Of a stretch of DNA of 64,000 nt, positions 151 through 28,828 are shown piece after piece. Position 1 is the stretch's first letter, and every line of letters begins with the position of its first letter. Source of the stretch: a virus (lineage: Duplodnaviria > Heunggongvirae > Uroviricota > Caudoviricetes); IMG/VR virus record IMGVR_UViG_3300037400_006466, positions 172,098 to 236,097 of that record. One strand, given 5' to 3'. The notes under the pieces were generated by a model. That model saw nothing but the letters and a program-made list of their open reading frames with translations. It did no database searches and was not told the origin of the DNA. The translations under genes were made by a program, and so were the position numbers.

Positions 151-363
151 TTATTTGAAATATAACCAATAGGTCCTTTTACATTCCTCACATTCCTGGC
201 CAATATAAGGAGAATTGCCAAGCTCTCCAAGGTCATACTTATCGTATTCCTCATTTATTGTATTGACATGGCCACAATAGGGGCACTTCGTATCAATCAT
301 CCATTTAACAGGATACCACTTGTCAAAACCACATACTATAATCTTTTCATCAGGATTCATCAT
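151..363 (-). CDS. small Zn-ribbon protein (CPYCG...CEEC); start moved to an internal ATG preceded by AAGGAGA
   Basis: ORF track 151..549, trimmed to the ATG at 363 with an SD 9 nt upstream. Contains C-x2-C...C-x2-C. Does not overlap the neighbouring gene that ends at 350. Confidence 0.5.
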   Translation of the reverse strand: MMNPDEKIIVCGFDKWYPVKWMIDTKCPYCGHVNTINEEYDKYDLGELGNSPYIGQECEECKRTYWLYFK

Positions 364-1180
364 CTGTCTCCTTATCCAAGATATGTGGGTCGTCCCACAT
401 GAATCCATCCTTCTCTTCTTCAGGAAGATTGTCAAACATATTAACCATACGTACACAGTCCTTCTCCCAAGAAGAGTCATAATTGTAGTAGACCTTCTCA
501 CCATCACTTGTGGTATACCATAGGTCACCCTTCTTGTAGTCTGGGTCATCTGCTATTCTCTCATAGTCATATGTCAGTTCTGGAACGCACTGTGCACGGA
601 GTCTGTAGGTCTCCTCATATTCATCACCACCAAGAATTCCGAAACTCTGTGGATTGAAGATAAAGGAATCTAGCCTTGTGGTATCCTCATCCTCACACAT
701 ATCCACAATCTCCTTGGAGTAAGAGCACTCTGTAGAGACCATGACATATGTCTTTATCTCATGTGTCTCATAATCGGGTTCTGTATTGTCAAACCACTCC
801 CAATGTGCATAAAGTGGAACAATCGGTATACGTATATAATACCAATGACCAAGACCAAGATTGAAAATCTTACTCTTGAGAGTCAGCACTTTTCTGAAAT
901 AATCTGGGTCATTCTCATACCATCTTGCGTAAAGGGCCATGATATACCTTATTTTGTCAGGTATGGAGTTGATTCTCATTATGTCTCCACGACAATAGGA
1001 AATCTCTCCAGATATATCCTCTACATTTATGTATTCCCAGTCATTGTGTACTGTCTTGTTCCTGGAGGATTCTCTCGTAAAGGTCTGCCCATACTTCTTA
1101 CTGTTGGGAACAGGAGTCTTGGCAATGAGGATAAAGCTGGCTGAGCTACTGTTGGATACAAATCCATTTCTGAACTTCAA
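350..1180 (-). CDS. member 1 of the MKIRNGFVSNSSSSSF N-terminal-signature family (homologous over its full length to 13099..13962)
   Basis: Long ORF. N-terminus is MKFRNGFVSNSSSASFIL. The body matches 13099..13962 at EVSYNRGDI, VSTECSY..IVDM and AILGGDEY. Confidence 0.75.
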   Translation of the reverse strand: MKFRNGFVSNSSSASFILIAKTPVPNSKKYGQTFTRESSRNKTVHNDWEYINVEDISGEISYCRGDIMRINSIPDKIRYIMALYARWYENDPDYFRKVLTLKSKIFNLGLGHWYYIRIPIVPLYAHWEWFDNTEPDYETHEIKTYVMVSTECSYSKEIVDMCEDEDTTRLDSFIFNPQSFGILGGDEYEETYRLRAQCVPELTYDYERIADDPDYKKGDLWYTTSDGEKVYYNYDSSWEKDCVRMVNMFDNLPEEEKDGFMWDDPHILDKETDDES

Positions 1181-1488
1181 TTTGTTCTCTCCTCATTACT
1201 TACAATGAACTCTGAATAATCATCATTTTCTGATAATTCATTAAAGAAGCTCTCAGTAAGACACTTCACAGGAATAGTACAGATATTCTCACCTCTCCAT
1301 TCACTACCATATCCACCAAAGAAAGCATGGAATCTGACGAAGACAGGATCATCCATACAAAGCTTAATAACAGGGCTTCTGTCTCCGACATCCCAATTAA
1401 GTGTAAGATATTTAAAATTAATTACCTGTGAAAGCTTTATTGCAACTGCCTTGAGGTTCTTGATTACCTGTTCTTTCTTATCCATCAT
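1177..1488 (-). CDS. hypothetical protein (tandem paralogue of 1489..1821)
   Basis: ORF with ATGA overlap to its neighbour. Both start MMDKKEQ / MIMDKREQ. Shared motifs include LNNLK and FIVSN. Confidence 0.6.
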   Translation of the reverse strand: MMDKKEQVIKNLKAVAIKLSQVINFKYLTLNWDVGDRSPVIKLCMDDPVFVRFHAFFGGYGSEWRGENICTIPVKCLTESFFNELSENDDYSEFIVSNEERTN

Positions 1489-1821
1489 TTACTCTCTATC
1501 AGGATTGCTGACGATGAACTGTGAGAAATCTGTATTCTTTGATATTCCACCAAGAGAAGTGCCTACAAGATTCTCAGCATTGATGATACAAAGAGGATAC
1601 TTCTCTTCCTTTCCGTTACCTTCCCAATGACTCAAAAAGACTTTGGGCATTTCAGTAATAACCCATGCATAACTTGGCTTATTCTCAAAAAGCTTGACAA
1701 CTGGTGCATCACAGCTGTTGCTCCAGTCAAGTACAAGATATCTGAAATAGATTGTCGGTGCGAGTCTTGCGGCCAATACCTTAAGATTGTTTAATGTCTG
1801 TTCTCTCTTGTCCATAATCAC
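1489..1821 (-). CDS. hypothetical protein (tandem paralogue of 1177..1488)
   Basis: ORF directly adjacent to 1177..1488. The track start is GTG; an in-frame ATG lies two codons downstream. Confidence 0.6.
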   Translation of the reverse strand: MIMDKREQTLNNLKVLAARLAPTIYFRYLVLDWSNSCDAPVVKLFENKPSYAWVITEMPKVFLSHWEGNGKEEKYPLCIINAENLVGTSLGGISKNTDFSQFIVSNPDRE

Positions 1822-2072
1822 ATCGGGTCCTTTCTGTTACTGTCAATAATCATCCTGATTCCCTTGATGATTCCTACAATAAATCCTACAACACAGACCA
1901 CAGTCAGTACAAGGACCGACAGTACGACCTGTCCCCAAAGAGGTGCAGTAACCCACCACCATGACCAGTCAATCACTCCTTTTATCTTGAGTCCCAGGAA
2001 CAGAAGGAACAGGGCGTCACACAGAGCCATCCCACCGATTACCTTTATCGCGCCTTCACTTTTGTAACCCAT
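1818..2072 (-). CDS. small membrane protein with WSWWWVTAPLW motif
   Basis: ORF with two hydrophobic helices. Has a paralogue at 17249..17428. Confidence 0.6.
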   Translation of the reverse strand: MGYKSEGAIKVIGGMALCDALFLLFLGLKIKGVIDWSWWWVTAPLWGQVVLSVLVLTVVCVVGFIVGIIKGIRMIIDSNRKDPM

Positions 2073-2075
2073 ATC

Positions 2076-2312
2076 TCATATCTCCAGGTAAATCTCTTCA
2101 TTGTTCCATATCTTCTCGAAATATGTCCCTATCTCAGCAAGGTCACTCAAAGTGACAGGGTGGCCCTCATTATAACGGAATTCTGCTCCGTTTATTCCTC
2201 TTACTTTTTGCATGAACACCTTGACGGCCTCAGCCATCACAGCCCCCACCACCTTGGGATTGTTCTTCTCATCCTTGCAGATATGTCTGTAATCCACCCT
2301 CTCAACACTCAT
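2076..2312 (-). CDS. hypothetical protein
   Basis: ORF sitting in a co-directional, tightly packed operon. Confidence 0.5.
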   Translation of the reverse strand: MSVERVDYRHICKDEKNNPKVVGAVMAEAVKVFMQKVRGINGAEFRYNEGHPVTLSDLAEIGTYFEKIWNNEEIYLEI

Positions 2313-2499
2313 CTGTCTCTATCCCCTGACTGTCAAAGGCCTTGTCAATAATAGGAAAGATAAGTCTTTCAATCCTCTCAGGCTCACACATATATCCACT
2401 TATTCCGAAATGGTCAATGAGAGGAACTCTGCCATCTTTATTGACTTTCTTGAGAAGCTCCTCTGAAATAAATTTCTTCAAGTTCTCTCTATCCATCAC
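2302..2499 (-). CDS. hypothetical protein
   Basis: ORF whose ends overlap both neighbours. Confidence 0.45.
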   Translation of the reverse strand: MMDRENLKKFISEELLKKVNKDGRVPLIDHFGISGYMCEPERIERLIFPIIDKAFDSQGIETDEC

Positions 2500-2726
2500 T
2501 TACCCCAGAAGTTCTCACAACCATTCTCACCGATTGCGTCTTCACCAGTGAGCATAAAGAAAGAATTATAGACACAGCCAAGTCTTATACATTCCTTGTG
2601 ATGCTCCCCCGTCCAAAATCTATGACACTTATCCCTTACAGGACATTCCTTGGTCAGAGTCACACCATCCTTCTCATACTGGGTCTTTCCATTACAAAAA
2701 GTTATGTCAAAATCATCTAAAGTCAT
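2496..2726 (-). CDS. Cys-rich small protein (FDITFC...C..C motif); paralogue of 17443..17691
   Basis: Track ORF 2496..2795 trimmed to the ATG at 2726 (MTLDDFDITFC). This matches the start of its paralogue, MGIDDFDITFC. Conserved Cys/His residues. Confidence 0.55.
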   Translation of the reverse strand: MTLDDFDITFCNGKTQYEKDGVTLTKECPVRDKCHRFWTGEHHKECIRLGCVYNSFFMLTGEDAIGENGCENFWGK

Positions 2727-2728
2727 TT

Positions 2729-2914
2729 TCAATTTTCTCCATCGAAAAAATCTGACAGCATCTTGAGAAAATCTTCCTCTTCCCAAAAGAACCAATCACT
2801 GTCATCATATCTTTTTAGATTCTCAATGAACTGTCCGAATCTCCAATCGGGGACTCTTTTCCAATACTCACCAAGCTTCTTCAAGAAAACATCTATCCTA
2901 TTAGGGTCTCTCAT
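2729..2914 (-). CDS. small protein with MRDPNRID...VPDWRFGQ motif; paralogue of 17064..17243
   Basis: ORF. About 60% identity to its paralogue across the whole length. Confidence 0.55.
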   Translation of the reverse strand: MRDPNRIDVFLKKLGEYWKRVPDWRFGQFIENLKRYDDSDWFFWEEEDFLKMLSDFFDGEN

Positions 2915-2926
2915 TCTTCCTCCTTT

Positions 2927-3175
2927 TCACCTCACATAATGCGCCCCAACATTAAGAAGAGACTGCACCTCATAGGTATCTACATCTCTGATAGGGGTAA
3001 TACTATCAAAGTACCACCCATAGATTTCCTGTCTCTGAATCTTTTCGATAAGGTCCTTCTCTGTCTTTACCCTGAATACAAAGCAAGTTACCATATACTT
3101 GTTTTCCATGCTACAGACATAGTACTTAAACCTATGACTTAATCTCATTATCCTCATCCTTACAGAAGCAGTCAA
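2927..3175 (-). CDS. hypothetical protein
   Basis: ORF. Confidence 0.5.
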   Translation of the reverse strand: MTASVRMRIMRLSHRFKYYVCSMENKYMVTCFVFRVKTEKDLIEKIQRQEIYGWYFDSITPIRDVDTYEVQSLLNVGAHYVR

Positions 3176-3214
3176 TATTCTCTTATATCTAATATAATAT
3201 AGAGTTAAGATTTT

Positions 3215-3478
3215 TCAAAAAATCTTATAATCAGCTGAACCGAAAATCCTGATACACTTGTAGGCGAAATTACCATAGGCCTTGCCAATAAGTTCCACAC
3301 CTTTCATGTATCTCTCCATGGCTTTATCCATACTGAAATACTCACCCCTCATGTGAGCTTTTCCCTCTTCGGAGTCTCCCTCAAAGTAAATGACATACTT
3401 GTTACCGGACTTATCAAGCTCCAGTCTGTAATCTCCCATATCCTTGTGTGACCTAAGTGACATAATCTCATAGAACAT
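3215..3478 (-). CDS. hypothetical protein
   Basis: ORF that follows a consensus promoter and a GTAAGGAGA Shine-Dalgarno site. Confidence 0.6.
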   Translation of the reverse strand: MFYEIMSLRSHKDMGDYRLELDKSGNKYVIYFEGDSEEGKAHMRGEYFSMDKAMERYMKGVELIGKAYGNFAYKCIRIFGSADYKIF

Positions 3479-3489
3479 ATGCTTCTCTT

Positions 3490-3536
3490 TTCTCCTTACA
3501 CTATAAATGTATCATATATGGGGAATCCTGTCAATA
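3490..3536 (-). promoter_or_regulatory. sigma-A-like promoter (TTGACA-N17-TACATT) followed by a GTAAGGAGA Shine-Dalgarno site
   Basis: Minus-strand read: TTGACAggattccccatatatgaTACATTtatagtGTAAGGAGaaaag...ATG. One of at least ten copies of this architecture. Confidence 0.55.
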
Positions 3537-3542
3537 GTTATA

Positions 3543-3569
3543 GGCAAAAAAAATACCCTCTTACAGAGG
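3543..3569 (-). terminator. rho-independent terminator
   Basis: GC-rich hairpin (ccctct / agaggg) followed by a run of 8 T on the minus strand, downstream of 3690..3995. Confidence 0.6.
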
Positions 3570-3689
3570 GCATCATTTCATCAGTTAAGAATCTCTTGTT
3601 TATAAACTCTTTCTTTCTCCCAAACAATAAAGGTGACCAATCTCCTCAGCTCCTTGTTCTTTCACTTGAACACACCTTTACTCTGTAAT

Positions 3690-3995
3690 TCAGGATAACA
3701 GACTCTTATAGGTATAATCATCAGAATCCTCCGTATCCCTCACCCTTATGGTATAAAAGTCCGGGTGCTCTTCAAGGTACTTCTCAATCATTTCCTTGGA
3801 CTCACAAATGAGATATGAAGGGAACTCAATCTCCATGGAATCCGTGAATCCCTTGATAGTAGGACCTTGTGTAATCCAATGACCAAAGCTCCGTGAAACA
3901 CCCTTCTTTTCATTGAGAATATCTATGAATCTATTACAAGCCTTTATAAATTCATTATTCAATCTCATGTATTTCATCAAATCATCAAATGTCAT
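3690..3995 (-). CDS. hypothetical protein
   Basis: ORF. Confidence 0.6.
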   Translation of the reverse strand: MTFDDLMKYMRLNNEFIKACNRFIDILNEKKGVSRSFGHWITQGPTIKGFTDSMEIEFPSYLICESKEMIEKYLEEHPDFYTIRVRDTEDSDDYTYKSLLS

Positions 3996-4162
3996 TTGCT
4001 TTCCTTATGATAATCCTCAGGTTCTCTACCCAAGATATACTCACCATCTTCTGTACAAGCAATCGTACCGAAATCATCATTGACAACTGGCTTATTCCTA
4101 AGCCTCTCTCTGAGCTCTTTAAGTTCTCTAAGCCTTTCATTATAATTATCATTTACAGACAT
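3992..4162 (-). CDS. small ORF (56 aa, coiled-coil-like) not in the track
   Basis: ATG at 4162 and stop TGA at 3994..3992, forming an ATGA overlap with the start of 3690..3995. Fills a gap that otherwise has no gene. Confidence 0.4.
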   Translation of the reverse strand: MSVNDNYNERLRELKELRERLRNKPVVNDDFGTIACTEDGEYILGREPEDYHKESK

Positions 4163-4353
4163 ATCTTGGCTTCTTCATACCTATTGGGAGAAGGCCTTGT
4201 ACTTGTATCATATTCAAACATAAGACCTTCATCTGCAATGTTCCAGATTTCATTGATGTTTATCTTTCTCTTACCCTTGGAATACTCCTGCTGACAAAGC
4301 TCACAAATTGCCCTGAGTGCCTCCTTTGGAGGAATACCATAACCATTACTCAT
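4153..4353 (-). CDS. hypothetical protein
   Basis: ORF. Confidence 0.5.
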   Translation of the reverse strand: MSNGYGIPPKEALRAICELCQQEYSKGKRKININEIWNIADEGLMFEYDTSTRPSPNRYEEAKICL

Positions 4354-4771: not shown

Positions 4772-4920
4772 ACTTCCTCCACAGAAATAATCCGATACTC
4801 ACAATCAATTCCAAGTCCATAGATTCTCTTACATTCCTCTACGGAACTTACAACACACTCCTGCCTATTCCACTGGCCTCTGGAGTAATCATCCTTGTAC
4901 TCAAAGACAACTTTTACCAT
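4768..4920 (-). CDS. small ORF (50 aa) not in the track
   Basis: ATG at 4920 preceded by GGAGAG. Its stop forms an ATGA overlap with the start of 4346..4771. Confidence 0.4.
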   Translation of the reverse strand: MVKVVFEYKDDYSRGQWNRQECVVSSVEECKRIYGLGIDCEYRIISVEEV

Positions 4921-5117: not shown

Positions 5118-5170
5118 AGCTGTTATTTCCTTTACATATATAATGTATCATTATTTCAGTATTTTGTCAA
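5118..5170 (-). promoter_or_regulatory. sigma-A-like promoter (TTGACA-N17-TACATT)
   Basis: Same architecture as 3490..3536. Confidence 0.5.
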
Positions 5171-5180
5171 TAGTCATAGA

Positions 5181-5211: not shown

Positions 5212-5226
5212 TCAAATCATCTTAAA

Positions 5227-5955
5227 TCAGTTCAAATCACCTTTAATCACTTCAATGGTGCTTTTGAGGAACATGGGGGCTTCGTTCCTTATCCTTTTCA
5301 TAGCCTTGTCAAAATACTCCCCATTCCTCTCCACACCTATAAAGCTTCTGTCATTGGTGACACAGGCTACACCAGTTACACCACTTCCCATGAAGCAGTC
5401 AAGAACAAGGTCACCCTTGTTGGTATGTCTCCTGACCAAATCCACCATGAGATTAAGATTCTTCTGTGTAGGATGAATCCTGTTGTTGTTGCTTTCCGTG
5501 GGATAACTCAACACACATTCATCATATGTATCTGACTGCCTGTTGAAAGTCCATTTATCTCCGGGCTTCACATACCAGGATGCTATCTCTATATTGCAGA
5601 TATACCTTCTGTCTCTGTTTCTTGGCATAGGATTGGTCTTTCTCCAAATGATTCTGTCCTTAAGTTCCAGTCCGTCAAGGACATTCAGTAAGTCCATGTA
5701 TTGTTCAAAAGAATGGAATACAAGAAGTGTCCCACCTTTCTTCAACTTCGGAACAAGGATTCCAAGGCTGCCTATGTCAAAGTCCTTGTCCCATTCCCCG
5801 AAGTCTATCCCTTGTCTGAAGGGTCTGTTCTTCATTGTGGAGAAGCTGTTATCCTTGGAGATGCAATAAGGAAGGTCTGTTATGATGGCATCAATGGATT
5901 CATCCTCTAATGTGGGGACAAAGTTCCTGAAATCATCATTGACAAGCTTAATCAT
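5227..5955 (-). CDS. DNA amino-methyltransferase, beta class (N6-adenine or N4-cytosine)
   Basis: N-terminal ITDLPY (motif IV, DPPY-like) and C-terminal FMGSGVTGVAC (motif I, FxGxG). This order defines beta-class amino-MTases. Confidence 0.8.
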   Translation of the reverse strand: MIKLVNDDFRNFVPTLEDESIDAIITDLPYCISKDNSFSTMKNRPFRQGIDFGEWDKDFDIGSLGILVPKLKKGGTLLVFHSFEQYMDLLNVLDGLELKDRIIWRKTNPMPRNRDRRYICNIEIASWYVKPGDKWTFNRQSDTYDECVLSYPTESNNNRIHPTQKNLNLMVDLVRRHTNKGDLVLDCFMGSGVTGVACVTNDRSFIGVERNGEYFDKAMKRIRNEAPMFLKSTIEVIKGDLN

Positions 5956-6707
5956 ACAATCACCAAGTCCTTCTTTCTGAACATAGGTAAGTTATCTCTG
6001 ATTCTGCTACAGGATACCTTGAAGTAATTCTCATCCTTCTCTATGCCTATGAAGTCCCTTTCCGTATTTATGCAGGCAAGCCCAGTTGTTCCACTTCCCA
6101 TACAATTATCCATTACCAACATTCCCTTATCTGTATATGTCTTGATAAGATATTCCAACATGGGAACAGACTTTTCCGTTCTGTGCTGAGCTACAGAAGG
6201 GTGTGGCTTCTCATAAGAGATTATGGAAGTAGGATACTTCATTCCATCATAATTCGGTTCAACCCTTTCAAAATCTCCATAATTGTTATTGGTCATTTTT
6301 CCCTGCAGATTTCCTACATTATGATTAGGTTTACCTTTGACCCTCTGTGGATTATAAACGGGCTGATTGTTATAGAACACAGCAATCTGCTCATGTCTTC
6401 TCAACGGCATCCTATTGGCATTGAGGAATCCTGAGGTGAGGACCTTATCCCATACCAAGTCATATTTGAACATCTTCCTATTGGAATTAACAAGGTCTAT
6501 ATAGAATATTCCTTGTCCGAAAAGAAGAATGGCTGAATTGTCCTTTGCTATCCTGTTATATTGCTCCCATAATGAATCAAAAGGTATGACTATATCCAAT
6601 TCATTGGCAGTCACACCATATGGAAGGTCACATAATATCATATCAATGGAATTGTCCGGAATCTCCTTCATTCTTTCCAGACAATCACCTTTCATAAGTT
6701 TAATCAT
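5952..6707 (-). CDS. DNA amino-methyltransferase, beta class
   Basis: LCDLPYGV motif IV and CMGSGTTGLACI motif I. ATGA overlap with both neighbours. Confidence 0.8.
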   Translation of the reverse strand: MIKLMKGDCLERMKEIPDNSIDMILCDLPYGVTANELDIVIPFDSLWEQYNRIAKDNSAILLFGQGIFYIDLVNSNRKMFKYDLVWDKVLTSGFLNANRMPLRRHEQIAVFYNNQPVYNPQRVKGKPNHNVGNLQGKMTNNNYGDFERVEPNYDGMKYPTSIISYEKPHPSVAQHRTEKSVPMLEYLIKTYTDKGMLVMDNCMGSGTTGLACINTERDFIGIEKDENYFKVSCSRIRDNLPMFRKKDLVIV

Positions 6708-7471
6708 AAAGTCACCAAATCATTTTCCATATAGATAGGGGAATACCTTTTGAGTCTATCAAAAGCAATCTTATAGTAATTATCATCTTTCTCAATACCT
6801 ATAAAATTTCTTTTTAAGTTATTACAAGCTATGCCAGTTGTTCCACTTCCCATAAAACAATCAAGAACAAGGTCTCCCTCATTAGTCACAAGACTTACAC
6901 ATCTTTCCATAAGAGCAATAGGCTTCTGTGTAGGGTGATTAACCTTCTCTCTGGAATTATGTGGAAGAGCCTTTATATCACTCCACACATCAGACAAAGA
7001 TACTCCATCTTTAAGTATTCCAGTATTATATTCTGGTCTGTCGGAATCTACTTTGATTTTGAGATTATTGAAAGTCCCCTTACCCTTCGTATAATAAGCA
7101 ATAGGCTCATAACCACTTGCCAAAGCATTTCCCCTTGTGGAGTTAAAACCTCTTTTTCTACTCCAGATTATGATACGCTGTTCTTTAAAATACTTATCAA
7201 GTATATTACAGACTTTTCTGTTAAGTTGTCTGCTTGTGAATATCATTATGGAAGAATTATCTTTCAATACGGAATCAACCAATACTATAAAATCTTCCAA
7301 CCATTTCAAGTAACTTTCCTCAGAGTCCCATTGAGAGTCCCATGATTCATTAACCACCTTGAAATATGGAATATCTGTAATGAGGGCATCTACCTTGATA
7401 TTCTGCTCATTAAGCAATTTAAGATTTTCTAAACAATCACCTTGAATAAGCCTAATCATTCTTACCACCAA
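6704..7471 (-). CDS. DNA amino-methyltransferase, beta class
   Basis: ITDIPYFK motif IV and FMGSGTTGIAC motif I. Confidence 0.8.
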   Translation of the reverse strand: MVVRMIRLIQGDCLENLKLLNEQNIKVDALITDIPYFKVVNESWDSQWDSEESYLKWLEDFIVLVDSVLKDNSSIMIFTSRQLNRKVCNILDKYFKEQRIIIWSRKRGFNSTRGNALASGYEPIAYYTKGKGTFNNLKIKVDSDRPEYNTGILKDGVSLSDVWSDIKALPHNSREKVNHPTQKPIALMERCVSLVTNEGDLVLDCFMGSGTTGIACNNLKRNFIGIEKDDNYYKIAFDRLKRYSPIYMENDLVTL

Positions 7472-13098: not shown

Positions 13099-13962
13099 TT
13101 ACTTGTAATTGTTCATATCCTGCCAATGATATGTCCAGGTATAATAATGGTCTACTCCATCTTTATCAGTATACCAATAATCTCCTTCATCGCAGTCAGG
13201 CTCATCGGTAAACATATCATACTCATAATCGACTTCCTGGGCGGCTTCCTTCTTAAGGACATCAGTTTCATTATACTCATCGCCACCAAGAATCGCAAAG
13301 CTCTTTGGGTTGAACAGGAATTCCTCAAGGAGATGTGTGTCCTCAGAATCAACCATATCTACTATCTTCTTCGCATAGGAACATTCAGTGGAGACTTGGG
13401 CATTCGGCTCAACGAAACCTGTCTCGTAGCTTTCATTCTTTTCCTCATCCCACTTGTCTTCCCATCTGAACTTGATGTTTGGAAGCTCTATATGAATCGC
13501 ATAATTGTACTTCTCACCAAGCTCCGCAATTTTCTTTTTGACGTTCAGCAAGTGCCCGAACAGCTTCTCAAGGTTATGGTCAAACTCATCATAATTGTAA
13601 TTACACTGGTACATTACATATAATGCATAGACATACTTGACCTTATCAGGAACGCTGTCAAGTCTCTGTATATCCCCACGATTATATGATACCTCACCTG
13701 GGTAGTCTATATAAATATGGAATGGCTGGAACGTGATTTCCATGGTCTCAGTGTCCCTGTAAGCTACGCCAGTATACTTCCCAAGATACTTCTTAGCCTC
13801 TTTCTTGAGCTTAAGGATATCCTGTGTCTCAAGGTATCTGAAAACTCTCTTGGTATTGACAAACTGCCTCCTGAGTTCATCACTTGTCGGGATATCTGAT
13901 TTAGCCATGAGAATGAATGAGCTTGAACTTGAGTTGCTTACGAATCCGTTTCTTATCTTCAT
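13099..13962 (-). CDS. member 2 of the MKIRNGFVSNSSSSSF N-terminal-signature family
   Basis: N-terminus MKIRNGFVSNSSSSSFILMAK. Homologous over its full length to 350..1180. Confidence 0.75.
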   Translation of the reverse strand: MKIRNGFVSNSSSSSFILMAKSDIPTSDELRRQFVNTKRVFRYLETQDILKLKKEAKKYLGKYTGVAYRDTETMEITFQPFHIYIDYPGEVSYNRGDIQRLDSVPDKVKYVYALYVMYQCNYNYDEFDHNLEKLFGHLLNVKKKIAELGEKYNYAIHIELPNIKFRWEDKWDEEKNESYETGFVEPNAQVSTECSYAKKIVDMVDSEDTHLLEEFLFNPKSFAILGGDEYNETDVLKKEAAQEVDYEYDMFTDEPDCDEGDYWYTDKDGVDHYYTWTYHWQDMNNYK

Positions 13963-17063: not shown

Positions 17064-17243
17064 TCACTCTGAAAAATACTTTCTAAAAAGAATAAGCAAA
17101 TCCTCGTCCTCTTTGTAAAACAGATCACTTCCGTCAAATCTCTGCATATTACAGAAAAGCTGCCCGAACCTCCAGTCCGGGACCTGCTTCCAGTACATAC
17201 CTAGTCTTTCTAAAAACTTATCGATTCTGTCAGGGTCTCTCAT
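17064..17243 (-). CDS. MRDPDRID...VPDWRFGQ small protein; paralogue of 2729..2914
   Basis: Track ORF 17064..17333 trimmed to the internal ATG at 17243. The upstream part of the track ORF overlaps the membrane-protein paralogue. Confidence 0.5.
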   Translation of the reverse strand: MRDPDRIDKFLERLGMYWKQVPDWRFGQLFCNMQRFDGSDLFYKEDEDLLILFRKYFSE

Positions 17244-17248
17244 GCTAC

Positions 17249-17428
17249 TTATAGTATCCTTATTATAATTATACAGATGATTACAATGATAACAGGAATC
17301 CATAGGGGAGCCGTGACCCACCACCATGACCAATTAATTACATTACAAAGTTTCAGTACCAGAAATACTATGAACAAAATTCCTGAGAATCCAATTCCAC
17401 CACCTGCACCACTGTTTCTGTCAGACAT
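17249..17428 (-). CDS. small membrane protein (59 aa, WSWWWVTAPLW) not in the track; paralogue of 1818..2072
   Basis: Translated by hand as MSDRNSGAGGGIGFSGILFIVFLVLKLCNVINWSWWWVTAPLWIPVIIVIICIIIIRIL. The DNA 17302..17340 matches 1945..1980. Confidence 0.5.
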   Translation of the reverse strand: MSDRNSGAGGGIGFSGILFIVFLVLKLCNVINWSWWWVTAPLWIPVIIVIICIIIIRIL

Positions 17429-17442
17429 CTATAAATACCTCT

Positions 17443-17691
17443 TTAATCAAAGTTTTTCCAATAATAGTCACATCCTTTATCTGTCAGAACATTGGGGTCT
17501 GTCAGCATAAAGAATGAATTATATATGTTTCCTGTCCTGACTGCTTCCTTTGCGTGTTTTTCAGTCCAATATCTTTTACAGGATTTCTTTACAGGACAGT
17601 CCAGGGAAACCTGTACCTCGGTATCTCCATGAGTATCTGTATACTCCACCTTTCCTCGGCAGAAAGTTATATCAAAATCATCTATTCCCAT
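17443..17691 (-). CDS. Cys-rich small protein (MGIDDFDITFC); paralogue of 2496..2726
   Basis: ORF. Confidence 0.55.
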   Translation of the reverse strand: MGIDDFDITFCRGKVEYTDTHGDTEVQVSLDCPVKKSCKRYWTEKHAKEAVRTGNIYNSFFMLTDPNVLTDKGCDYYWKNFD

Positions 17692-20043: not shown

Positions 20044-20991
20044 TTAAGGGAGCTCTTTTTTCAACTCTTCTATGTTATGGAATCCTTCACCTTCAAGTGC
20101 TGCGACTACTCTCTGGCTATCATCCTCTTTCTTCTTGTTCCATCTTTCCAAATCAAATGGAGCAGTATAGACCTGAGGTTCCTCAAAATCATCAACAGCT
20201 TTCCAGTTATCCTGTACCTTCTTGATTACATCCAGTACCTTGGCGAAAATCTCTGACTCTTTGTTCAGATACTTTCCTTCAGATATCTTTTCAAGATAGT
20301 AACACTTCTCTTTGAGTGCAAGGTCTCTCACCTCATGTTCAACCTCAGACAGTGCCTGACCTGCATCCTCACAAATCCACTTCTTCGGTTCTACAGGTGG
20401 ATGGGGTGGCTGACCCTTAAATTCATTCTCTGGCTGCTTGTCATACCATTCCTTGAGGACAGGATACATCTTTTCCTTATATAATTTACTTGTATAATAA
20501 TACTTTTCATCATAGTCATCCATGAAATACTTGTCATTTGCATAATTCTGTAGGTCAGTCCTTGCATCATTCAGACCGAGAGTACTTCTATAACTACCAG
20601 AATGTTCCAACCAGAGTCCACACTTGTCTATATCTACACCTATGACTTTAAGGAACTGTTCCATATCAAAGTTGTCCATGTCTGTAGAAAAATCAAAGAC
20701 ATTTGAACCTTCAGTCACATCCCAGCCTTCAGGATAATAGGCATAATCATGTTCTGAAAAAGGTTCGCAGTGATATGCTATTCGCTGATCCTCTGAACTC
20801 CAGTCATAGTATTCGGTATTATGCGGATAAAGGTCTCCGGCATACTTACTGACCATTTCCTTGTATTCATCAGACAGACTGAAGTTCTTCCAGTTCTTTA
20901 TCCATTTAATCTGCTCAGGAGTCAGATATGCCTTGAACAGAATAAATGAGGATGATGAACTATTACTTACAAAACCGTTTCTTATCTTCAT
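20044..20991 (-). CDS. member 3 of the MKIRNGFVSNSSSSSF N-terminal-signature family
   Basis: N-terminus MKIRNGFVSNSSSSSFILFKA. The rest is unrelated to the other members. Confidence 0.75.
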   Translation of the reverse strand: MKIRNGFVSNSSSSSFILFKAYLTPEQIKWIKNWKNFSLSDEYKEMVSKYAGDLYPHNTEYYDWSSEDQRIAYHCEPFSEHDYAYYPEGWDVTEGSNVFDFSTDMDNFDMEQFLKVIGVDIDKCGLWLEHSGSYRSTLGLNDARTDLQNYANDKYFMDDYDEKYYYTSKLYKEKMYPVLKEWYDKQPENEFKGQPPHPPVEPKKWICEDAGQALSEVEHEVRDLALKEKCYYLEKISEGKYLNKESEIFAKVLDVIKKVQDNWKAVDDFEEPQVYTAPFDLERWNKKKEDDSQRVVAALEGEGFHNIEELKKELP

Positions 20992-21575
20992 TAATCTCTA
21001 AACTCCCAGACTACATCATGCTTCCGGAATATATTACCGGCTGCACTCTTTATGGCATAGGTGTCTTCCCAATCAAGAAACTTGCACCCTTCACTGGTAT
21101 CGACCTCAATCTCATATACATTCTTGTCAGGGGTTATTTTACTGAGCAGCTCAGGGTCAGAGTACCTGTCTATCACATCATAGTAATCGTCCCCTCTGAC
21201 AGGCCTTAATTCTCTCTTGAAATATTTGCAGTTCAGACAATCACTGTTAGGCCATTCATCCGGGTCCTTAAAACAATAATGAGGGCAACTCCAGATATTC
21301 TGCATCTCATCCCAAGTGGCTGAACAGTATTTATGAGTCTCGGTCTCGCCTTCCTCGGGCTTATAGCGCCTGTCTATATCCCCGTATTCCTGCTTGGTAT
21401 ATTGGGACATGAACAGAAGATATGTCATAGCCCCTTGCTGAGCAGTGGTAAGCTCATCAGTGAATCCACCTACATAATCCTCAACCTCAGACAGTTTAAG
21501 CTCCCTGCCTTTTGGGACTATAAGAATAAAAGAGGAACTTGAACTATTGCTTACAAATCCGTTTCTTATCTTCAT
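20991..21575 (-). CDS. member 4 of the MKIRNGFVSNSSSSSF family (Cys-rich body)
   Basis: N-terminus MKIRNGFVSNSSSSSFILIVPKG. Confidence 0.75.
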   Translation of the reverse strand: MKIRNGFVSNSSSSSFILIVPKGRELKLSEVEDYVGGFTDELTTAQQGAMTYLLFMSQYTKQEYGDIDRRYKPEEGETETHKYCSATWDEMQNIWSCPHYCFKDPDEWPNSDCLNCKYFKRELRPVRGDDYYDVIDRYSDPELLSKITPDKNVYEIEVDTSEGCKFLDWEDTYAIKSAAGNIFRKHDVVWEFRD

Positions 21576-23691: not shown

Positions 23692-23959
23692 CCAGCTCCT
23701 CCAAATCCTCAACAATATAACCGATATCGTCCAGAGCACTTTCCATACCACTAAGCTCACTACTAGCATCATCTATGGCGTCTCTCAGTCTTTTGGCTAT
23801 ATCAGAGACATTAGGAACACGAATGTCAGGACACAGCTCAACACTTCTGTTTCCAAGTCTGACCTCACCCCACTCAATGCCATATCTGTTGTTGATGCTT
23901 ACAAGCATATTAGGGTCAAATTCTGAAAGTCTCTCAATAAGCTCCTTTACAGTCATCAA
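23684..23959 (-). CDS. small acidic protein of the KELIE.L..FDP family
   Basis: ORF. Confidence 0.5.
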   Translation of the reverse strand: MMTVKELIERLSEFDPNMLVSINNRYGIEWGEVRLGNRSVELCPDIRVPNVSDIAKRLRDAIDDASSELSGMESALDDIGYIVEDLEELDD

Positions 23960-24858
23960 TAGTCCTCCTCATCATCTGTGCTTATATTGAACTCATCAAG
24001 ATTCTCTATGATTTCCTTGAGGTCTCCCACAGTCAATGGATGATTGTCCACATAGAATATACCATTTCTATTCTTGTTCTGGAAGGTCTCTATGGCCTTG
24101 ATTACGGCTTCTCTGAATGTAGCCGGAGTACCTGGCTTGTCATAGTATGTACTTGAATCAAGACCGAAGTATCTCTCAGCAAACTCTGAAGCATTGGCAC
24201 TATCTGGGACACAGGAATCATAGTCTATATTCATATACTTGACCACAAGATTCTCAGGGTCGATCTTTTCAGACTTAATGAGCTCCTCTCTCATATCCTC
24301 AAGGGCTTTCTTGCGTGCCTGCCTTCTAGCTGTACGCTCTCTTTCATCTTTGACCTTATACCACTCGTCAGCCTTCTTGACTCTTGCCTCAGTCTCAGCA
24401 TCAGCCTCACCCTTTCGGACCTTTATACTATCCTCAATGGAGACCTCAGGAAGTTCCATGTCAGACATATCCACATCTGGTGACCTATACTCATACTCAT
24501 CAGACTGGCATCTGTATACTTCTGTGAGAGCCTGGACTCTCGGAATCTGAACCTTAGGATACTCCTTGTTTTCAACATAATCTTCGTCCCAATCACCATA
24601 GTCAGTATAAGAAACTGTTCCCTGATTATACTTGATGAACCTCTCTTTATGATTCAGGAGATAGTTCTTCTGATGCATATCAAGAGTAAAGAAATCCCAT
24701 CCATCATTGGCATCAGACTTGAATGTGATTTCATTTCTTGGATTCTCATTTATATATTTGACAATATCCTCGGGCTTTGTAAGTGTCTTGGACTTATCAT
24801 ATGCCACCAGAAAGCTTGAGGAACTTGAATTGCTTACAAAACCATTACGAATCTTCAT
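23956..24858 (-). CDS. member 5 of the MKIRNGFVSNSSSSSF family
   Basis: N-terminus MKIRNGFVSNSSSSSFLVAYDK. The body is charged and coiled-coil-like. Confidence 0.75.
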   Translation of the reverse strand: MKIRNGFVSNSSSSSFLVAYDKSKTLTKPEDIVKYINENPRNEITFKSDANDGWDFFTLDMHQKNYLLNHKERFIKYNQGTVSYTDYGDWDEDYVENKEYPKVQIPRVQALTEVYRCQSDEYEYRSPDVDMSDMELPEVSIEDSIKVRKGEADAETEARVKKADEWYKVKDERERTARRQARKKALEDMREELIKSEKIDPENLVVKYMNIDYDSCVPDSANASEFAERYFGLDSSTYYDKPGTPATFREAVIKAIETFQNKNRNGIFYVDNHPLTVGDLKEIIENLDEFNISTDDEEDY

Positions 24859-24896
24859 AATATTTCTCCTATACTATTATTATAATAGACTTTAAC

Positions 24897-25211
24897 TTAA
24901 TTGTCAAGAGATTCCTCAAGGTCTCTCATTTCAAGATTCATAAAAAGTCCTTCAGAAGAATCAGCCTTAAAATCTTTTGACAGAATCCTATCAGTATCTA
25001 TTCCTAAGACCAGCTCCAAGGTCATTAATGCATCATCTATTTCTTGATTTATGTGATAGAGATATGTCCCTGTGTCTGCATCTTTCTTAGCTATATCCCT
25101 TGATATCTTGTTCAAATTTCTGGAATACTCAAGTATTTCGTCAAGGAGTTTAGCTATTGTATATTGGTCTTTGGCTGACAGCTCAATCATACCAGCTTCA
25201 TTTCTTGTCAT
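24897..25211 (-). CDS. hypothetical protein
   Basis: ORF. Confidence 0.55.
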   Translation of the reverse strand: MTRNEAGMIELSAKDQYTIAKLLDEILEYSRNLNKISRDIAKKDADTGTYLYHINQEIDDALMTLELVLGIDTDRILSKDFKADSSEGLFMNLEMRDLEESLDN

Positions 25212-25417
25212 ACATTTGTCTTCAATACAGTAGGTATGTTCTCAGACCCTCTGATACTGAGCATTGCATCTGCAATCTCATAAGCCTCTTCAGCTATGGC
25301 AAGATGCCAGTCAGGATTAGCTCCTACCCGTGGTCTATATCTCGTTGAATGAGCCAGCATACCATTCAATGCTTCAATCGCAATTCTATCTCTCAACTCT
25401 AATTCTGTATTATTCAT
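25208..25417 (-). CDS. hypothetical protein
   Basis: ORF. Confidence 0.5.
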   Translation of the reverse strand: MNNTELELRDRIAIEALNGMLAHSTRYRPRVGANPDWHLAIAEEAYEIADAMLSIRGSENIPTVLKTNV

Positions 25418-25445
25418 TTACTTGCCTCCACTAAACCTAATCCTT

Positions 25446-25661
25446 CTAATTTAAGTTTATAATGTAATTTATATCTACTCTTGGTGCAAAGAAATTACAT
25501 TTGTAAACTAAAGGACTTATCATTTTACAAATCCCTCTATGTCTACATTCTCTACAAGGCTGCAATGTTGCGTACTTAATGCCAAAAGCTTCAGTAGCTT
25601 CTTTATCTTTCTGATAGTCATCTGTTGATTTTACAATTGTATTGGCTTCTTCAAACGTCAT
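25446..25661 (-). CDS. small Cys-rich protein (MTFEEAN...); paralogue of 12364..12561
   Basis: ORF. Confidence 0.55.
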   Translation of the reverse strand: MTFEEANTIVKSTDDYQKDKEATEAFGIKYATLQPCRECRHRGICKMISPLVYKCNFFAPRVDINYIINLN

Positions 25662-25831
25662 ATACTAGCCTCCACAAAAGCCTCAATGGTCTCCTTTGCT
25701 GCATCGACAAATAACTTCACCCTGTCAGGTTGATTTGCTTTCTTGAGCCTCCTCGCATTTCTGAGAAGTCCGTTTATTCGGATAAGTGCAAGAAGCCTAT
25801 ATTTACACAACCTTCTTATATCATCTGTCAT
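25658..25831 (-). CDS. small basic ORF (57 aa) not in the track
   Basis: ATG at 25831. Its stop forms an ATGA overlap with the start of 25446..25661. Confidence 0.35.
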   Translation of the reverse strand: MTDDIRRLCKYRLLALIRINGLLRNARRLKKANQPDRVKLFVDAAKETIEAFVEASI

Positions 25832-26165
25832 TCTGTTGCCCTTCTATTTTCTGCCATTCCATGTTCTTGAATGTACAATAAGGTGAATATTTGTAATTTT
25901 CAGTTCTGTAGCAGATTTCTTCTTCACCTTTCTTACCAATTACAAATTTAATCAGATACCAACCTTCCTCTGTCGGTGTCCCTGTGTGCCAAGGAGAAGA
26001 AGTTCTCTTGTCTTTGCAGTGATCGAGCTATTGCTCGACGCGGAAGCTGGATATCAGCCTTGACCCATTCGTGTATACTTTCTCTTCGTCTGTGAAACCA
26101 TAGGATTTCTCAAACTCTTCCCATGTCTCAGGGAAAACCATAGCATCACTCATCTTATCTATCTC

Positions 26166-26483
26166 CTACCAATAGAACTGCTCAGGGGCAGCCTCTCTAG
26201 GTATCGAAACATAATCCCACCAACCTTTGGAAGATATAGTCTCCAATGTTGAAGCTCTGTTATTGAACATGTCAACAGCAAATCTGTTTTTGCATACTGG
26301 ACACTTCCATGTAGGCACATTAGGATATCTGTCAACAGTGGCCTCAATACAATCTGGATCTGAAAAATAATAGGTCTTAAACTTCAGCCTTCTTCCAGCA
26401 ACAACATTAACTCTGGAATTACAATATGGGCAGTCTACATTAAAATTTTTCTTGATGGTCATTATGTTCTCCATCCATTTCAC
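26166..26483 (-). CDS. Zn-ribbon protein (CPYCNS...CPVCKN)
   Basis: ORF. Confidence 0.55.
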   Translation of the reverse strand: MKWMENIMTIKKNFNVDCPYCNSRVNVVAGRRLKFKTYYFSDPDCIEATVDRYPNVPTWKCPVCKNRFAVDMFNNRASTLETISSKGWWDYVSIPREAAPEQFYW

Positions 26484-26714
26484 TCATATATTTGAAAACA
26501 CCTCAAACAGAAGTCTCTCTTCCTTTGTATCCTCTGTGGACAGAGTGATCTCAGTTCTGTCATCATTGTACCAGAAGTAGTTACCATCATTCTCATAATC
26601 ATCAAGAAATTTACTGATTATGTCTCTTAACTTTTTCAGGTCTTCTATCCTCTCTTCATCTATTATAAAAGAAGAGGAACTTGAATTTGATACAAAGCCT
26701 TTTCTGATTTTCAT
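26484..26714 (-). CDS. member 6 (short, 76 aa) of the MKIRNGFVSNSSSSSF family
   Basis: N-terminus MKIRKGFVSNSSSSSFIIDEE. Confidence 0.65.
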   Translation of the reverse strand: MKIRKGFVSNSSSSSFIIDEERIEDLKKLRDIISKFLDDYENDGNYFWYNDDRTEITLSTEDTKEERLLFEVFSNI

Positions 26715-26905
26715 TTACAGTCCAACCTTGACATAAAGCTCTCAAAGCTTTCATTCACAACCATCTGTCCATTAGCATACCATGTTGTCCAAATCCAGAC
26801 AGAATCTTCTCTATTATTGGGATTTCTCTCGACACCGTTTATGGTATCTGTGTTAAGAACCAAGTCATATCCCCCATCTGTCTTGACATATATGAATTTA
26901 CTCAT
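26711..26905 (-). CDS. hypothetical protein
   Basis: ORF. Confidence 0.5.
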   Translation of the reverse strand: MSKFIYVKTDGGYDLVLNTDTINGVERNPNNREDSVWIWTTWYANGQMVVNESFESFMSRLDCK

Positions 26906-26924
26906 GTCTAATCCTTAGAAGACC

Positions 26925-27236
26925 TTATACATATTTATCTTTCTTGACATCTTTGTAATACTGCTTCCAGTCTTTACTGGTGAACTTACCAAATCTGTCT
27001 TTAATCCAATTCTCAAAGTCATTGAAGTGCCAGTCAGGATTTCTATACTCTATCTCTCTAAGAGTTTCCAAAACTTTAACTCTGTATTTAGAGCCAACAT
27101 AATAACTACCTTGCTCTTCAATAATGTTGTTCCAAAGCTCCAAAAGATATAAAGCTTCAAAAGGCGTAAGTCTTGACTTACCTTCCTCTCTTAAGAATGT
27201 AGGTTCAACTTTCATTTCGGGTATATTATATGTCAT
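26925..27236 (-). CDS. hypothetical protein
   Basis: ORF. Confidence 0.55.
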   Translation of the reverse strand: MTYNIPEMKVEPTFLREEGKSRLTPFEALYLLELWNNIIEEQGSYYVGSKYRVKVLETLREIEYRNPDWHFNDFENWIKDRFGKFTSKDWKQYYKDVKKDKYV

Positions 27237-27598
27237 TTGTCTTCTTCCTTTTTCTTTCCTCTGCCCTTGTAGGTGAAAGATTCAAGGTCATTCCATCCGC
27301 TTGACCTGTTAATCACTCCTCTGACCTTTTTGACCTTGTTGGGTCTGGCAGGCATCTTATGGAACTCCCACCATTCAGAACCATCATACTCTCCACGGGT
27401 CATGTAGAAATCCTTGCCTACAACCAAAAGGTCTTCGGCTACTTCAGCACACCCCCAGCCTGAGTCATACTCCTTGTCAAAGAGCTTGGAACAATCTTCC
27501 TTGGGAATCTCAAAGTCATAACAACCTACCCATTCCACATCATCCCATGAATAACCATGCTCATCGAGCACTTCATTTGTCTCTTCCCAAAGATTCAT
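27233..27598 (-). CDS. hypothetical protein
   Basis: ORF. Confidence 0.55.
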   Translation of the reverse strand: MNLWEETNEVLDEHGYSWDDVEWVGCYDFEIPKEDCSKLFDKEYDSGWGCAEVAEDLLVVGKDFYMTRGEYDGSEWWEFHKMPARPNKVKKVRGVINRSSGWNDLESFTYKGRGKKKEEDK

Positions 27599-27783
27599 GA
27601 TTTCTTCTCCTTTTTCTCCAACTTCTTACAGTCTCTTGTAAAGGAGCACAGTCCGATTATAAGACAAAGGCTGATTCCAATAGCAACTCCCAAAAGACCT
27701 GCCATGATGGTATTTCTCACCATATAGGAATTATATATCTCCATTATTGCAGTATATATCTCAAGTCTGGTTGCAGCGTCCAT
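27595..27783 (-). CDS. small membrane protein
   Basis: ORF containing a hydrophobic helix. Confidence 0.5.
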   Translation of the reverse strand: MDAATRLEIYTAIMEIYNSYMVRNTIMAGLLGVAIGISLCLIIGLCSFTRDCKKLEKKEKKS

Positions 27784-28172
27784 CAGTATATCTCCTTGTT
27801 TATATCATCCTCAAACTTATCAATTATCTTGAGAATCTTAGAGTTCTTAGGGTCTTCATCCTCTAAATCCTCGAGAATATCCTCAAGGATATCAATTGCC
27901 GCCTGCATATCATCTTTCAAATCATCAACAAAGTCCTCATAATCACCGACTTCGTTCTCAAGGTCCCTTATTTCAGAATCCTTTTCGTCAATGTCATTCT
28001 CAAGTTCCTCAATCCTATCATCAATAGGATAATCTGACTCAGGAACAATAGAGAAGGTATTTGCACCGATATTCTCTATTTTCTTGATACCTACACCATT
28101 AATGGTAATCTCAGCATAAGGCGCCTTCCAACTGTTCAGTTCCTCAATAAGCTCTTTGATATCCATAATCAC
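27783..28172 (-). CDS. acidic protein of the KELIEEL family
   Basis: ORF. Confidence 0.55.
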   Translation of the reverse strand: MIMDIKELIEELNSWKAPYAEITINGVGIKKIENIGANTFSIVPESDYPIDDRIEELENDIDEKDSEIRDLENEVGDYEDFVDDLKDDMQAAIDILEDILEDLEDEDPKNSKILKIIDKFEDDINKEIY

Positions 28173-28474
28173 TCCTCCCCATAATATGTTCCATATTCCT
28201 TTGCGAACATCTTCTGATATTCCTCGAACTTGATTTCCTCTTCATCGGTCAATTCACCCCTGAAGGATTTTCTCATAAGTTCCTTATAAACAGGGTCAAA
28301 CATATAATAGACCTCTTCCATATAATCGAAATTGTATGCTCCGAGGCCTACATCCTGTATCTTGCCCTCATCATCCTCCCATTCCACGAAATAGCACTGG
28401 CCATAATCATTGAGACCTAGCTTTATGTCTTTTCCGTCTATGTGAAAGGTCTTCACATACTCATTCGTATCCAT
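28169..28474 (-). CDS. hypothetical protein
   Basis: ORF. Confidence 0.55.
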   Translation of the reverse strand: MDTNEYVKTFHIDGKDIKLGLNDYGQCYFVEWEDDEGKIQDVGLGAYNFDYMEEVYYMFDPVYKELMRKSFRGELTDEEEIKFEEYQKMFAKEYGTYYGEE

Positions 28475-28480
28475 AAGCCC

Positions 28481-28828
28481 TCAATACCATGTGGCTCCCA
28501 TAAGTCTGAACCATTCATCAGGTACATCAAATCCCAAGGAATCCTTGATAATCCTCTTCACCTTCTCCCTGCATCTGCTGAGATTCTCAGGACTGACATC
28601 AAGGCTGATATTCTCTGCTCCATCACTCCAATAGGAAAGGGACTCTCCTATTATCTCATCCTCACAGAAAACGATATCCCACAAAGCATCATTATAATCC
28701 CTGTTACGGTCACTTTTGGCATCACCCCATTTCTCACAGAACTCATCCTCAAGCATCTCTGAGGGGAATCCATAGATGATATAACTTGAACTTGAGCTGT
28801 TGCTCACAAATCCTCTTCTAACCTTCAT
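28481..28828 (-). CDS. member 7 of the MKIRNGFVSNSSSSSF family
   Basis: N-terminus MKVRRGFVSNSSSSSYIIYGF. Confidence 0.7.
   Translation of the reverse strand: MKVRRGFVSNSSSSSYIIYGFPSEMLEDEFCEKWGDAKSDRNRDYNDALWDIVFCEDEIIGESLSYWSDGAENISLDVSPENLSRCREKVKRIIKDSLGFDVPDEWFRLMGATWY

Follow-up and report, generated by a model that had tools for sequence, protein, structure and literature searches.

Seven open reading frames (ORFs), found in a 64,000-nucleotide stretch of caudovirus DNA (positions 172,098 to 236,097 of the IMG/VR record IMGVR_UViG_3300037400_006466), open with one and the same motif—MK(I/F/V)R(N/K/R)GFVSNSSS(S/A)S(F/Y)—and lie all on the minus strand. The whole stretch, referred to below as the window, is a fragment of a giant-phage metagenomic contig of 284,702 bp; the seven ORFs are numbered as members 1 to 7 in Table 1, and the motif is called the leader or the tag. 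They are part of a very large, undescribed and phage-restricted superfamily, the members of which share only this N-terminal module of 18 residues. In related loci, the leader genes stand in a tight, polar and bidirectional synteny with the gene of a radical S-adenosylmethionine (rSAM) enzyme of the SPASM type. The reading favoured here, if only tentatively, is a system similar to those of the ribosomally synthesised peptides with post-translational modifications (RiPPs), in which one phage rSAM/SPASM enzyme would recognise or modify the tag on many substrate proteins.

Within the window, a six-frame scan revealed exactly seven matches to the motif, every one of them at the start of an ORF, and a hidden Markov model (HMM) of the leader also gave seven matches (E = 1e-9 to 1e-12), the next best one having E = 1.8. 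Any two members agree in 13–18 of the first 18 residues, the corresponding 54 nucleotides being identical at 29–47 positions (54–87%); about half of the codons for identical residues, i.e. 5–12 per pair, differ synonymously. Since identical residues use different codons, it is the peptide and not a DNA repeat that is under selection, as the original prediction made from this DNA had argued from codon examples that proved to be right (members 2 and 4 versus 5, and member 4 versus 2). A DNA-level repeat, the junction of a recombination cassette or mere chance could invoke the repetition itself and nothing more. They are already refuted by the synonymous-site pattern (5–12 of the 13–18 identical residues of a pair differing in codon), the motif is always in frame at an ORF start, and 1.06 Mb of shuffled DNA contained no match to it; the probability of this whole group of explanations is practically negligible.

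Concerning the bodies of the seven proteins, i.e. the parts past residue 20, BLASTP aligned only those of members 1 and 2 (42% identity, E = 5e-49), every other pair having E > 0.03. The coordinates of the seven ORFs, their length range of 76–315 aa, the restriction of whole-length homology to members 1 and 2 and the idea of a conserved N-terminal leader on otherwise unrelated bodies had all been put forward before and were borne out, the strand being the item that had been missing. Most of the leader genes are preceded by a Shine-Dalgarno-like sequence or by a stop/start overlap with the preceding gene; the start of member 3, for example, overlaps the stop of member 4. Their surroundings consist of early-type genes, with the methylases and the DNA polymerase on the same strand. 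The same protein as member 4 was found on a contig of 284,702 bp. The contig L163, which is 100% identical to the window across 11,180 bp, extends 9.6 kb past its left edge and carries there two extra members, so that the genome has at least nine of them; an extra gene of L163 represents another recurrent body type, the largest body type being that of member 3.

The extent of the superfamily is evident from a HMMER search with a 30-residue N-terminal profile, which retrieved 21,664 clusters (E ≤ 1e-3), nearly always matched from residue 1, from a database of 1.84 billion cluster representatives (clusters at 50% identity). A scan of IMG/VR with the leader alone yielded more than 107 confirmed sites on contigs of 9–548 kb, the same leader, which it had been proposed to seek in related phage genomes, being thus found widely. 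The 91 leader-anchored loci that were fetched—79 viral and 12 from metagenome-assembled genomes (MAGs)—contain 249 leader ORFs, co-directional in each locus and often lined up in tandem, with as many as 11 of them in 6 kb. The carriers are nearly all uncultured phages; the cellular genomes (185,579 species searched) contributed only 12 loci, all of them on MAG contigs.

No description of the family, its motif or its association with the rSAM enzyme was found in the literature and databases searched, which agrees with the view of the original prediction that the leader belongs to no described family. None of the seven window proteins, nor of ten other body types, scored above the cut-off in Pfam, NCBIfam or PADLOC, so the profile searches that had been advised for the leader and the bodies left the latter unannotated and led, with the leader only, to the clusters mentioned above. 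The leader was unmatched among the PDB sequences, a match to YtoQ (E = 0.74) being taken as noise, and literature searches on the motif and on phage rSAM/SPASM systems brought nothing relevant. When the leader alignment was used in a word-indexed protein search, only short fragments bearing no names or domains came back. Among GenBank phages, 10 kb of the window found no match by Megablast; the same holds for tblastn of the leader, of a protein of the commonest body type (c0) and of a 2,404-aa concatenation of 17 members against 50,697 phage records, the Ser run being masked by the low-complexity filter. All seven proteins matched PHROG 7397, a family of unknown function (E = 3e-5 to 0.017), six of them at profile positions 1–18 to 1–42 only (of 170) and member 3 with residues 1–105 at positions 1–112 (E = 0.017), with no full-length match among the seven. 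Except in member 3, the likeness is thus confined to the leader region, PHROG 7397 being evidently one body type of the superfamily; it is itself unannotated and does not capture the superfamily as a whole.

The 392 distinct leaders give the consensus M-K-h-R-x-G-F-V-S-N-S-S-S-x-S-F-h-h, in which M1, K2, N10, S11 and S12 are invariant and R4, G6, F7, V8, S9, S15 and F16 reach a conservation of 94% or more, position 5 being free and positions 17–19 hydrophobic. Asp and Glu are outside the six commonest residues at every position from 1 to 18 (Glu reaches ~1%, at position 14 only), and there is no Cys in the leader. Tolerated positions are illustrated by the IMG/VR loci L136 and L137, with His for Phe7 (MKIR.GHVSNSS), and by L010, with Asp for Gly6 (MK.R.DFVSNSS). 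A human-gut lineage (L011, L021, L022 and about 20 related IMG/VR loci, 100–160 kb) has the leader variant MKIRNGFVTNSSSSSF and a fixed trio of leader genes, coding for about 90, 152 and 250 aa, beside a DUF5688 gene and a Cys-rich 193-aa protein. There are also database proteins with two leaders (P0074–P0080, P0083 and P0122), i.e. head-to-tail fusions or read-throughs of adjacent family genes, in each of which the internal leader copy keeps its own Met-Lys. Two proteins of the 'FhhYG' body type, P0089 and P0145, contain a second, internal 'CRNGFVS' echoing leader residues 4–9, which could be either chance or a partial internal duplication.

With regard to the bodies in the superfamily, 248 proteins fall into 90 BLAST clusters, of which 63 are singletons, and the 12 largest clusters, taken with the leader removed, exhibit no profile-profile similarity (best HHalign probability 15%). 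Body sizes vary from 58 to about 300 residues and cover Zn-ribbon-like, all-helical and alpha/beta types, the median length of the leader proteins in the related loci being ~130 aa; the bodies are uniformly acidic, with a median isoelectric point (pI) of 4.55. In the AlphaFold2 model of member 3, built from 36 sequences with a predicted local distance difference test (pLDDT) value of 81, residues 1–11 are unplaced (pLDDT below 50, block mean 28), yet they form the most conserved part of the family, and residues 14–19 (SSFILF) are the beta-strand with which a confident alpha/beta domain begins. The model of member 4, based on five sequences, had a pLDDT of 44 and was not used. According to the model of member 3, residues 1 to ~13 are predicted to be a basic, Ser/Asn-rich free peptide and residues 14 to ~19 (S-F-h-h-h) the first beta-strand of the body. 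A shared N-terminal fold element, one of the alternatives considered at the outset, is therefore retained for residues 14–19, the first core strand, and not for residues 1–11, which this one good model leaves unplaced. In member 4, none of the residues C84, C97, C113 and C116 varies among five orthologs, the identity of which goes down to 49%, and this suggests a metal site in that body type.

The core strand at residues 14–19 would also be in keeping with a single, highly diverged enzyme or ligand-binding fold, in which the motif would be an active site in the beta1-loop, of the kind present in HAD, flavodoxin-like, SGNH or TIR domains, and the bodies would be homologous beyond recognition. 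An N-terminal strand followed by a Ser-rich loop is typical of phosphate-binding or nucleophile loops, which counts in its favour. Bodies as different in size and structural type as those described above, the missing profile-profile similarity and the position of the most conserved residues outside the folded part of the model, nevertheless, render such a common fold highly improbable.

The partner enzyme was identified by clustering all non-leader ORFs of the leader-anchored loci. It is a family of ~350 aa, present in 29 of the 91 loci and always on the leader strand, with a C-terminus rich in Cys and a CxxxCxxC motif that carries an insertion in some members. Its Pfam matches, to Radical_SAM and SPASM, are sub-threshold; among the PDB sequences, its profile matched SkfB, a peptide maturase (E = 7e-5, aligned over 240 residues), and in NCBIfam it matched many models of rSAM/SPASM maturases, the best with E = 9.5e-12 and none at the family level, whilst matches to PPR were discarded as repeat artefacts. 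A conserved extension of ~45 residues on the N-terminal side of the radical-SAM core (residues ~20–60, in columns of alignment A4) reads Y-N-x-x-F-N-x-x-x-G-x-x-x-R-W-G-x-x-x-x-x-D-P...G-P-E. Nothing annotated corresponds to it, and it is a candidate for the element that binds the substrate.

In the reciprocal test, 59 of the 71 rSAM-anchored loci from IMG/VR were found to hold 1–11 leader genes within 8 kb, in total 247, of which 246 are on the strand of the enzyme. The corrected figure is about 61 of 67 loci (~91%), two loci with the G-H-VSNSS variant having been added and three loci truncated after the enzyme gene, together with one dubious partial match, removed. The density of leader genes is 5.8 times higher downstream than upstream of the rSAM gene; from its stop to the first leader gene the median distance is 580 nt, and 174 of the 196 downstream copies lie within 5 kb. 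There is no third conserved gene, since every other gene family is limited to 10 or fewer of the 71 rSAM loci.

Cultured carriers were found indirectly, via the rSAM enzyme and a whole-genome HMM scan. The rSAM family (~45% identity) is present in 173 GenBank phage records, all from T4-like phages of Klebsiella, Enterobacter, Cronobacter, Citrobacter, Escherichia and relatives. The scan of the complete phiEap-3 genome revealed exactly one rSAM protein, gp161, and no more than two proteins with the leader, namely gp113 and gp118, both of which start with MKIRSGFVSNSSSSSF and are encoded on the same strand. The protein gp118 represents the second commonest body type, and 175 records contain its homologues, distributed over the taxa just as the rSAM enzyme is, which shows that the enzyme and the leader proteins travel together even when their genes are not adjacent.

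The original prediction had likened the leader to the capsid-targeting sequence (CTS) of the T4 internal proteins, i.e. to a signal that would send diverse cargo into the prohead and be removed there by the prohead protease, possibly within the Ser run, the cargo being then injected with the DNA. The formal pattern fits, because both systems display a short conserved N-terminus on unrelated, fast-diversifying, multi-copy small proteins encoded in plastic genome regions; residues 1–11 are, moreover, predicted to be free, and the T4-like carriers do have a CTS system, phiEap-3 encoding a standard gp21-type protease. The leader, however, bears no sequence similarity to the T4 CTS and offers that protease no L/I-x-E site; a T4-type prohead protease site is missing because the conserved 18 residues contain no acidic one. 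Complete cleavage of the leader would remove a structural element, since, according to the one good model, residues 14–19 are one of the core strands in the body. The tag is conserved over unrelated phage groups, from contigs of 9–548 kb to the T4-likes, and would need a common capsid receptor, none being evident; its conserved neighbour is the rSAM gene, not a head or protease gene, and its setting appears to be early-type, not late, co-directional with the DNA polymerase and methylases. It should also be pointed out that no exact copy of the late promoter TATAAATA (only the exact 8-mer being considered) is located within 3 kb upstream of the leader genes of phiEap-3, whereas its nine plus-strand copies are all in the late structural module, many of them immediately preceding late genes that are known. 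The specific idea of a T4-like capsid-targeting signal that is cleaved in its Ser run is thus not supported, given the lack of acidic residues, the apparently early-type setting and the rSAM partner; the evidence as a whole argues mildly against the targeting idea, which we consider improbable. The literature searched, including that on Slopekvirus, yielded no virion proteome for any carrier; virion mass spectrometry has been published for Jiaodavirus, which is not a carrier (PMC13119998), and the paper on phiEap-3 is without proteomics (PMC6412083).

As far as the preferred reading—one rSAM/SPASM maturase acting on many tagged proteins—is concerned, the free N-terminal peptide would be the recognition and probably also the modification site of the phage-encoded enzyme, with the invariant N10-S11-S12 as the obvious candidate site, and a single enzyme would process many different substrate proteins. 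The arrangement would be like a RiPP cluster scaled up, its 'cores' being whole proteins of 76–315 aa, and the genome to which the window belongs would be expected to use such an enzyme as well. As a guess from the context, the tagged proteins may be early-region, multi-copy, acidic accessory proteins, e.g. host-takeover or anti-defence effectors. A more specific version is possible, albeit doubtful: a dedicated tagging system in phages of many lineages, in which the rSAM/SPASM enzyme would install a novel modification on the 18-residue tag of dozens of unrelated effectors per genome. Tagging would then be a kind of viral post-translational 'licensing' for which no counterpart has been described, the tag being portable to any protein, and Ser-to-formylglycine oxidation, epimerisation or a cross-link within F-V-S-N-S-S would be the candidate modifications. 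A glycyl-radical site (R-V-x-G-[FY]-[SA]) was rejected because Gly6 is not invariant, being replaced by Asp or Tyr in some members, and the spacing of Arg is off by one; the enzyme, too, is of the SPASM type and not a glycyl-radical activase of the PflA type.

Of the systems known, leader-guided rSAM/SPASM maturation, i.e. that of the RiPPs and of anSME, is the closest in kind. In RiPP clusters that combine one promiscuous maturase with many precursors having a leader in common (e.g. Nif11/NHLP-leader families and prochlorosins; rSAM/SPASM maturases such as SkfB, AlbA, PqqE and MftC), an rSAM/SPASM gene is likewise followed by a same-strand gene array, whose products share a near-invariant N-terminus and are hypervariable in the rest. 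Typical RiPP precursors, however, are under 100 aa, their variable core being modified and released, whereas the phage 'precursors' are folded acidic proteins of 76–315 aa belonging to at least 90 unrelated types, not peptides. Their conserved part comprises only 18 residues, the C-terminal third of which is a structural strand of the body, and the phage loci lack the RiPP recognition element (RRE), the leader protease and the exporter. The genes are, in addition, phage-borne, many of them far from any rSAM gene or without one, and the modification is here a putative one. The anaerobic sulfatase-maturating enzymes (anSME/AtsB), also of the rSAM/SPASM type, act on Ser or Cys in full-length folded sulfatases, within a short Ser-containing motif. 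The proposed phage system would resemble them in having a whole folded protein, not a peptide, as the substrate; it differs in that the sulfatase motif C/S-x-P/A-x-R is absent from the leader and the substrates do not form one enzyme family, and no anSME model was among the best NCBIfam matches of the phage enzyme. The phage case hence departs from leader-guided rSAM/SPASM maturation in the size and diversity of its substrates, in the missing recognition, protease and export parts and in its viral origin.

Several points weigh against a maturase of this kind. Gene neighbourhood is not proof of an enzyme–substrate relationship, the substrates are far above the classical RiPP precursor size, and the 71 rSAM loci hold, next to the pair, no protease, no exporter and no recognition protein of the RRE/PqqD type. 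No particular chemistry is assignable, thioether formation being excluded because the leader holds no Cys as an acceptor. In phiEap-3, the leader genes are ~20 kb away from the rSAM gene, and the co-occurrence in 173–175 records equals about one evolutionary event, because the records come from one clade. In the vicinity of a few rSAM loci leader genes are missing; these loci are scattered over the enzyme tree, which rules out a separate 'leader-less' clade. An rSAM homologue was found neither by tblastn nor by profile search in the window and its 9.6-kb extension, i.e. in 74 of 285 kb. As regards the 74 leader-bearing contigs from IMG/VR, at least 30 have the rSAM gene on the same contig according to two independent pattern scans for the enzyme (116 contigs in union), this figure being a lower bound because the contigs are partial and the scans pattern-limited; half of the 44 negatives are the 22 contigs (100–160 kb) of the human-gut lineage with the FVTNSSS variant, in which no rSAM gene was detected. 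With most rSAM loci holding leader genes and many leader contigs showing no rSAM gene, the dependence is asymmetric: the enzyme is almost never without leader genes, and leader genes may lack a nearby, possibly any, enzyme.

It is these contigs without a detectable rSAM gene, together with the 74 kb examined here, that favour the main rival, an autonomous docking or assembly peptide. The free Ser-rich peptide and the first strand would bind a conserved hub by beta-strand addition, or would self-associate, the hub being a host or phage protein encoded elsewhere and the rSAM enzyme an optional accessory in some phages. The monomer model leaves the most conserved residues unplaced, as is expected of an intermolecular motif, and an alternating hydrophobic/polar pattern flanks the Ser/Asn loop. 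A docking peptide is still judged unlikely, since no candidate hub has been identified, a hub in the host would require conservation among very different hosts (enterobacterial T4-likes; gut, aquatic and other metagenomes) and it would be left unexplained why the rSAM gene is hardly ever seen lacking leader genes immediately downstream.

The same synteny would be equally unaccounted for by a degradation or timing tag, another alternative raised earlier, according to which the N-terminus would be a degron or a protease-recognition site limiting the lifetime of early accessory proteins. A tag that is N-terminal, exposed and basic-hydrophobic and occurs on many accessory proteins would suit that role. 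To our knowledge, however, it is unlike the published ClpX N-motifs, no protease gene is linked to it, and degrons are usually far less strictly conserved than N-S-S, which is invariant in more than 20,000 clusters; this explanation is thus very unlikely.

Apart from the leader genes, the window contains hallmarks of a phage, such as a family-A-like DNA polymerase in two parts, a clamp loader, giant ORFs of the tail-fibre-like kind and three DNA methylases (Table 1). Paralog families are abundant throughout the leader region. The three tandem methyltransferases have overlapping stops and starts; a three-gene block is present in duplicate, and three more paralog pairs are formed by small early-type genes. 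The two polymerase ORFs are separated by ~4 kb of other ORFs, among them one for a homologue of the PHROG-200 'lipoprotein', and one of the two giant ORFs is preceded by an ORF for a tail-fibre-like protein.

Table 1 Leader proteins and other features of the window, with the two extra leader genes of contig L163 (numbered on that contig)
Feature	Position	Strand	Remarks
Leader protein 1	350..1180	-	276 aa; TTG start; N-terminus MKFRNGFVSNSSSASFIL; body paralogous to member 2, body pI 4.5
Leader protein 2	13099..13962	-	287 aa; body 42% identical to member 1
Leader protein 3	20044..20991	-	315 aa; N-terminal domain of the commonest body type (c0)
Leader protein 4	20991..21575	-	194 aa; four invariant Cys in body (five orthologs)
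Leader protein 5	23956..24858	-	300 aa; ...SSFLVAY...; body type unlike the other six
Leader protein 6	26484..26714	-	76 aa, shortest; leader ~1/4 of the protein
Leader protein 7	28481..28828	-	115 aa; MKVRRGFVSNSSSSSYII...; most divergent leader among the seven
Extra leader gene	L163 11443-11904		outside left edge of window
Extra leader gene	L163 11916-12560		outside left edge of window
N6/N4 DNA methyltransferase paralogs	5227-5955, 5952-6707, 6704-7471	-	28-31% mutual identity
Duplicated three-gene block	1818-2914 and 17064-17691	-	46-62% protein identity; small membrane protein (WSWWWVTAPLW), Cys-containing 'DDFDITFC...YNSFFMLT' protein, 'RDP.RID.FL..LG.YWK.VPDWRFGQ' protein
Paralog pair	16165-16722/22669-23301	-	35-45% identity (all three pairs); starts MLKPIGGTI.Y, ends CFIRSF
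Paralog pair	1177-1488/1489-1821	-	
Paralog pair	12364-12561/25446-25661	-	
DNA polymerase, first ORF	29355-30320	-	PHROG 17 positions 657-1050
PHROG-200 'lipoprotein' homologue	31508-32479		323 aa
DNA polymerase, second ORF	34367-36496	-	PHROG 17 positions 1057-1241
Tail-fibre-like protein	37208-39697		829 aa; ahead of giant ORF 39721-46209
Giant ORF	39721-46209	+	2,162 aa
tRNA-Leu(TAA)	48522-48605	-	lone tRNA
Giant ORF	57794-63997	-	at least 2,067 aa; runs off window

Should the interpretation given above be true, the leader proteins would be among the largest uncharacterised phage protein superfamilies, with more than 21,000 clusters at 50% identity and no Pfam entry, and it is surprising that a superfamily of over 20,000 clusters, defined by 18 residues, has escaped annotation. 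Thousands of 'hypothetical' early genes would obtain a shared logic, the rSAM maturation of whole proteins would be a widespread viral strategy, and the 18-residue tag with its one enzyme might serve as a protein-engineering tool. The proposal lends itself to a direct test, as a minimal version with one enzyme and two putative substrates is present in T4-like phages in culture, namely those of Klebsiella, Enterobacter and E. coli (KP15, KP27, phiEap-3, RB43 and Lw1). Even without the link to the rSAM enzyme, a peptide so conserved on unrelated bodies must contact something conserved, and its partner would be informative.

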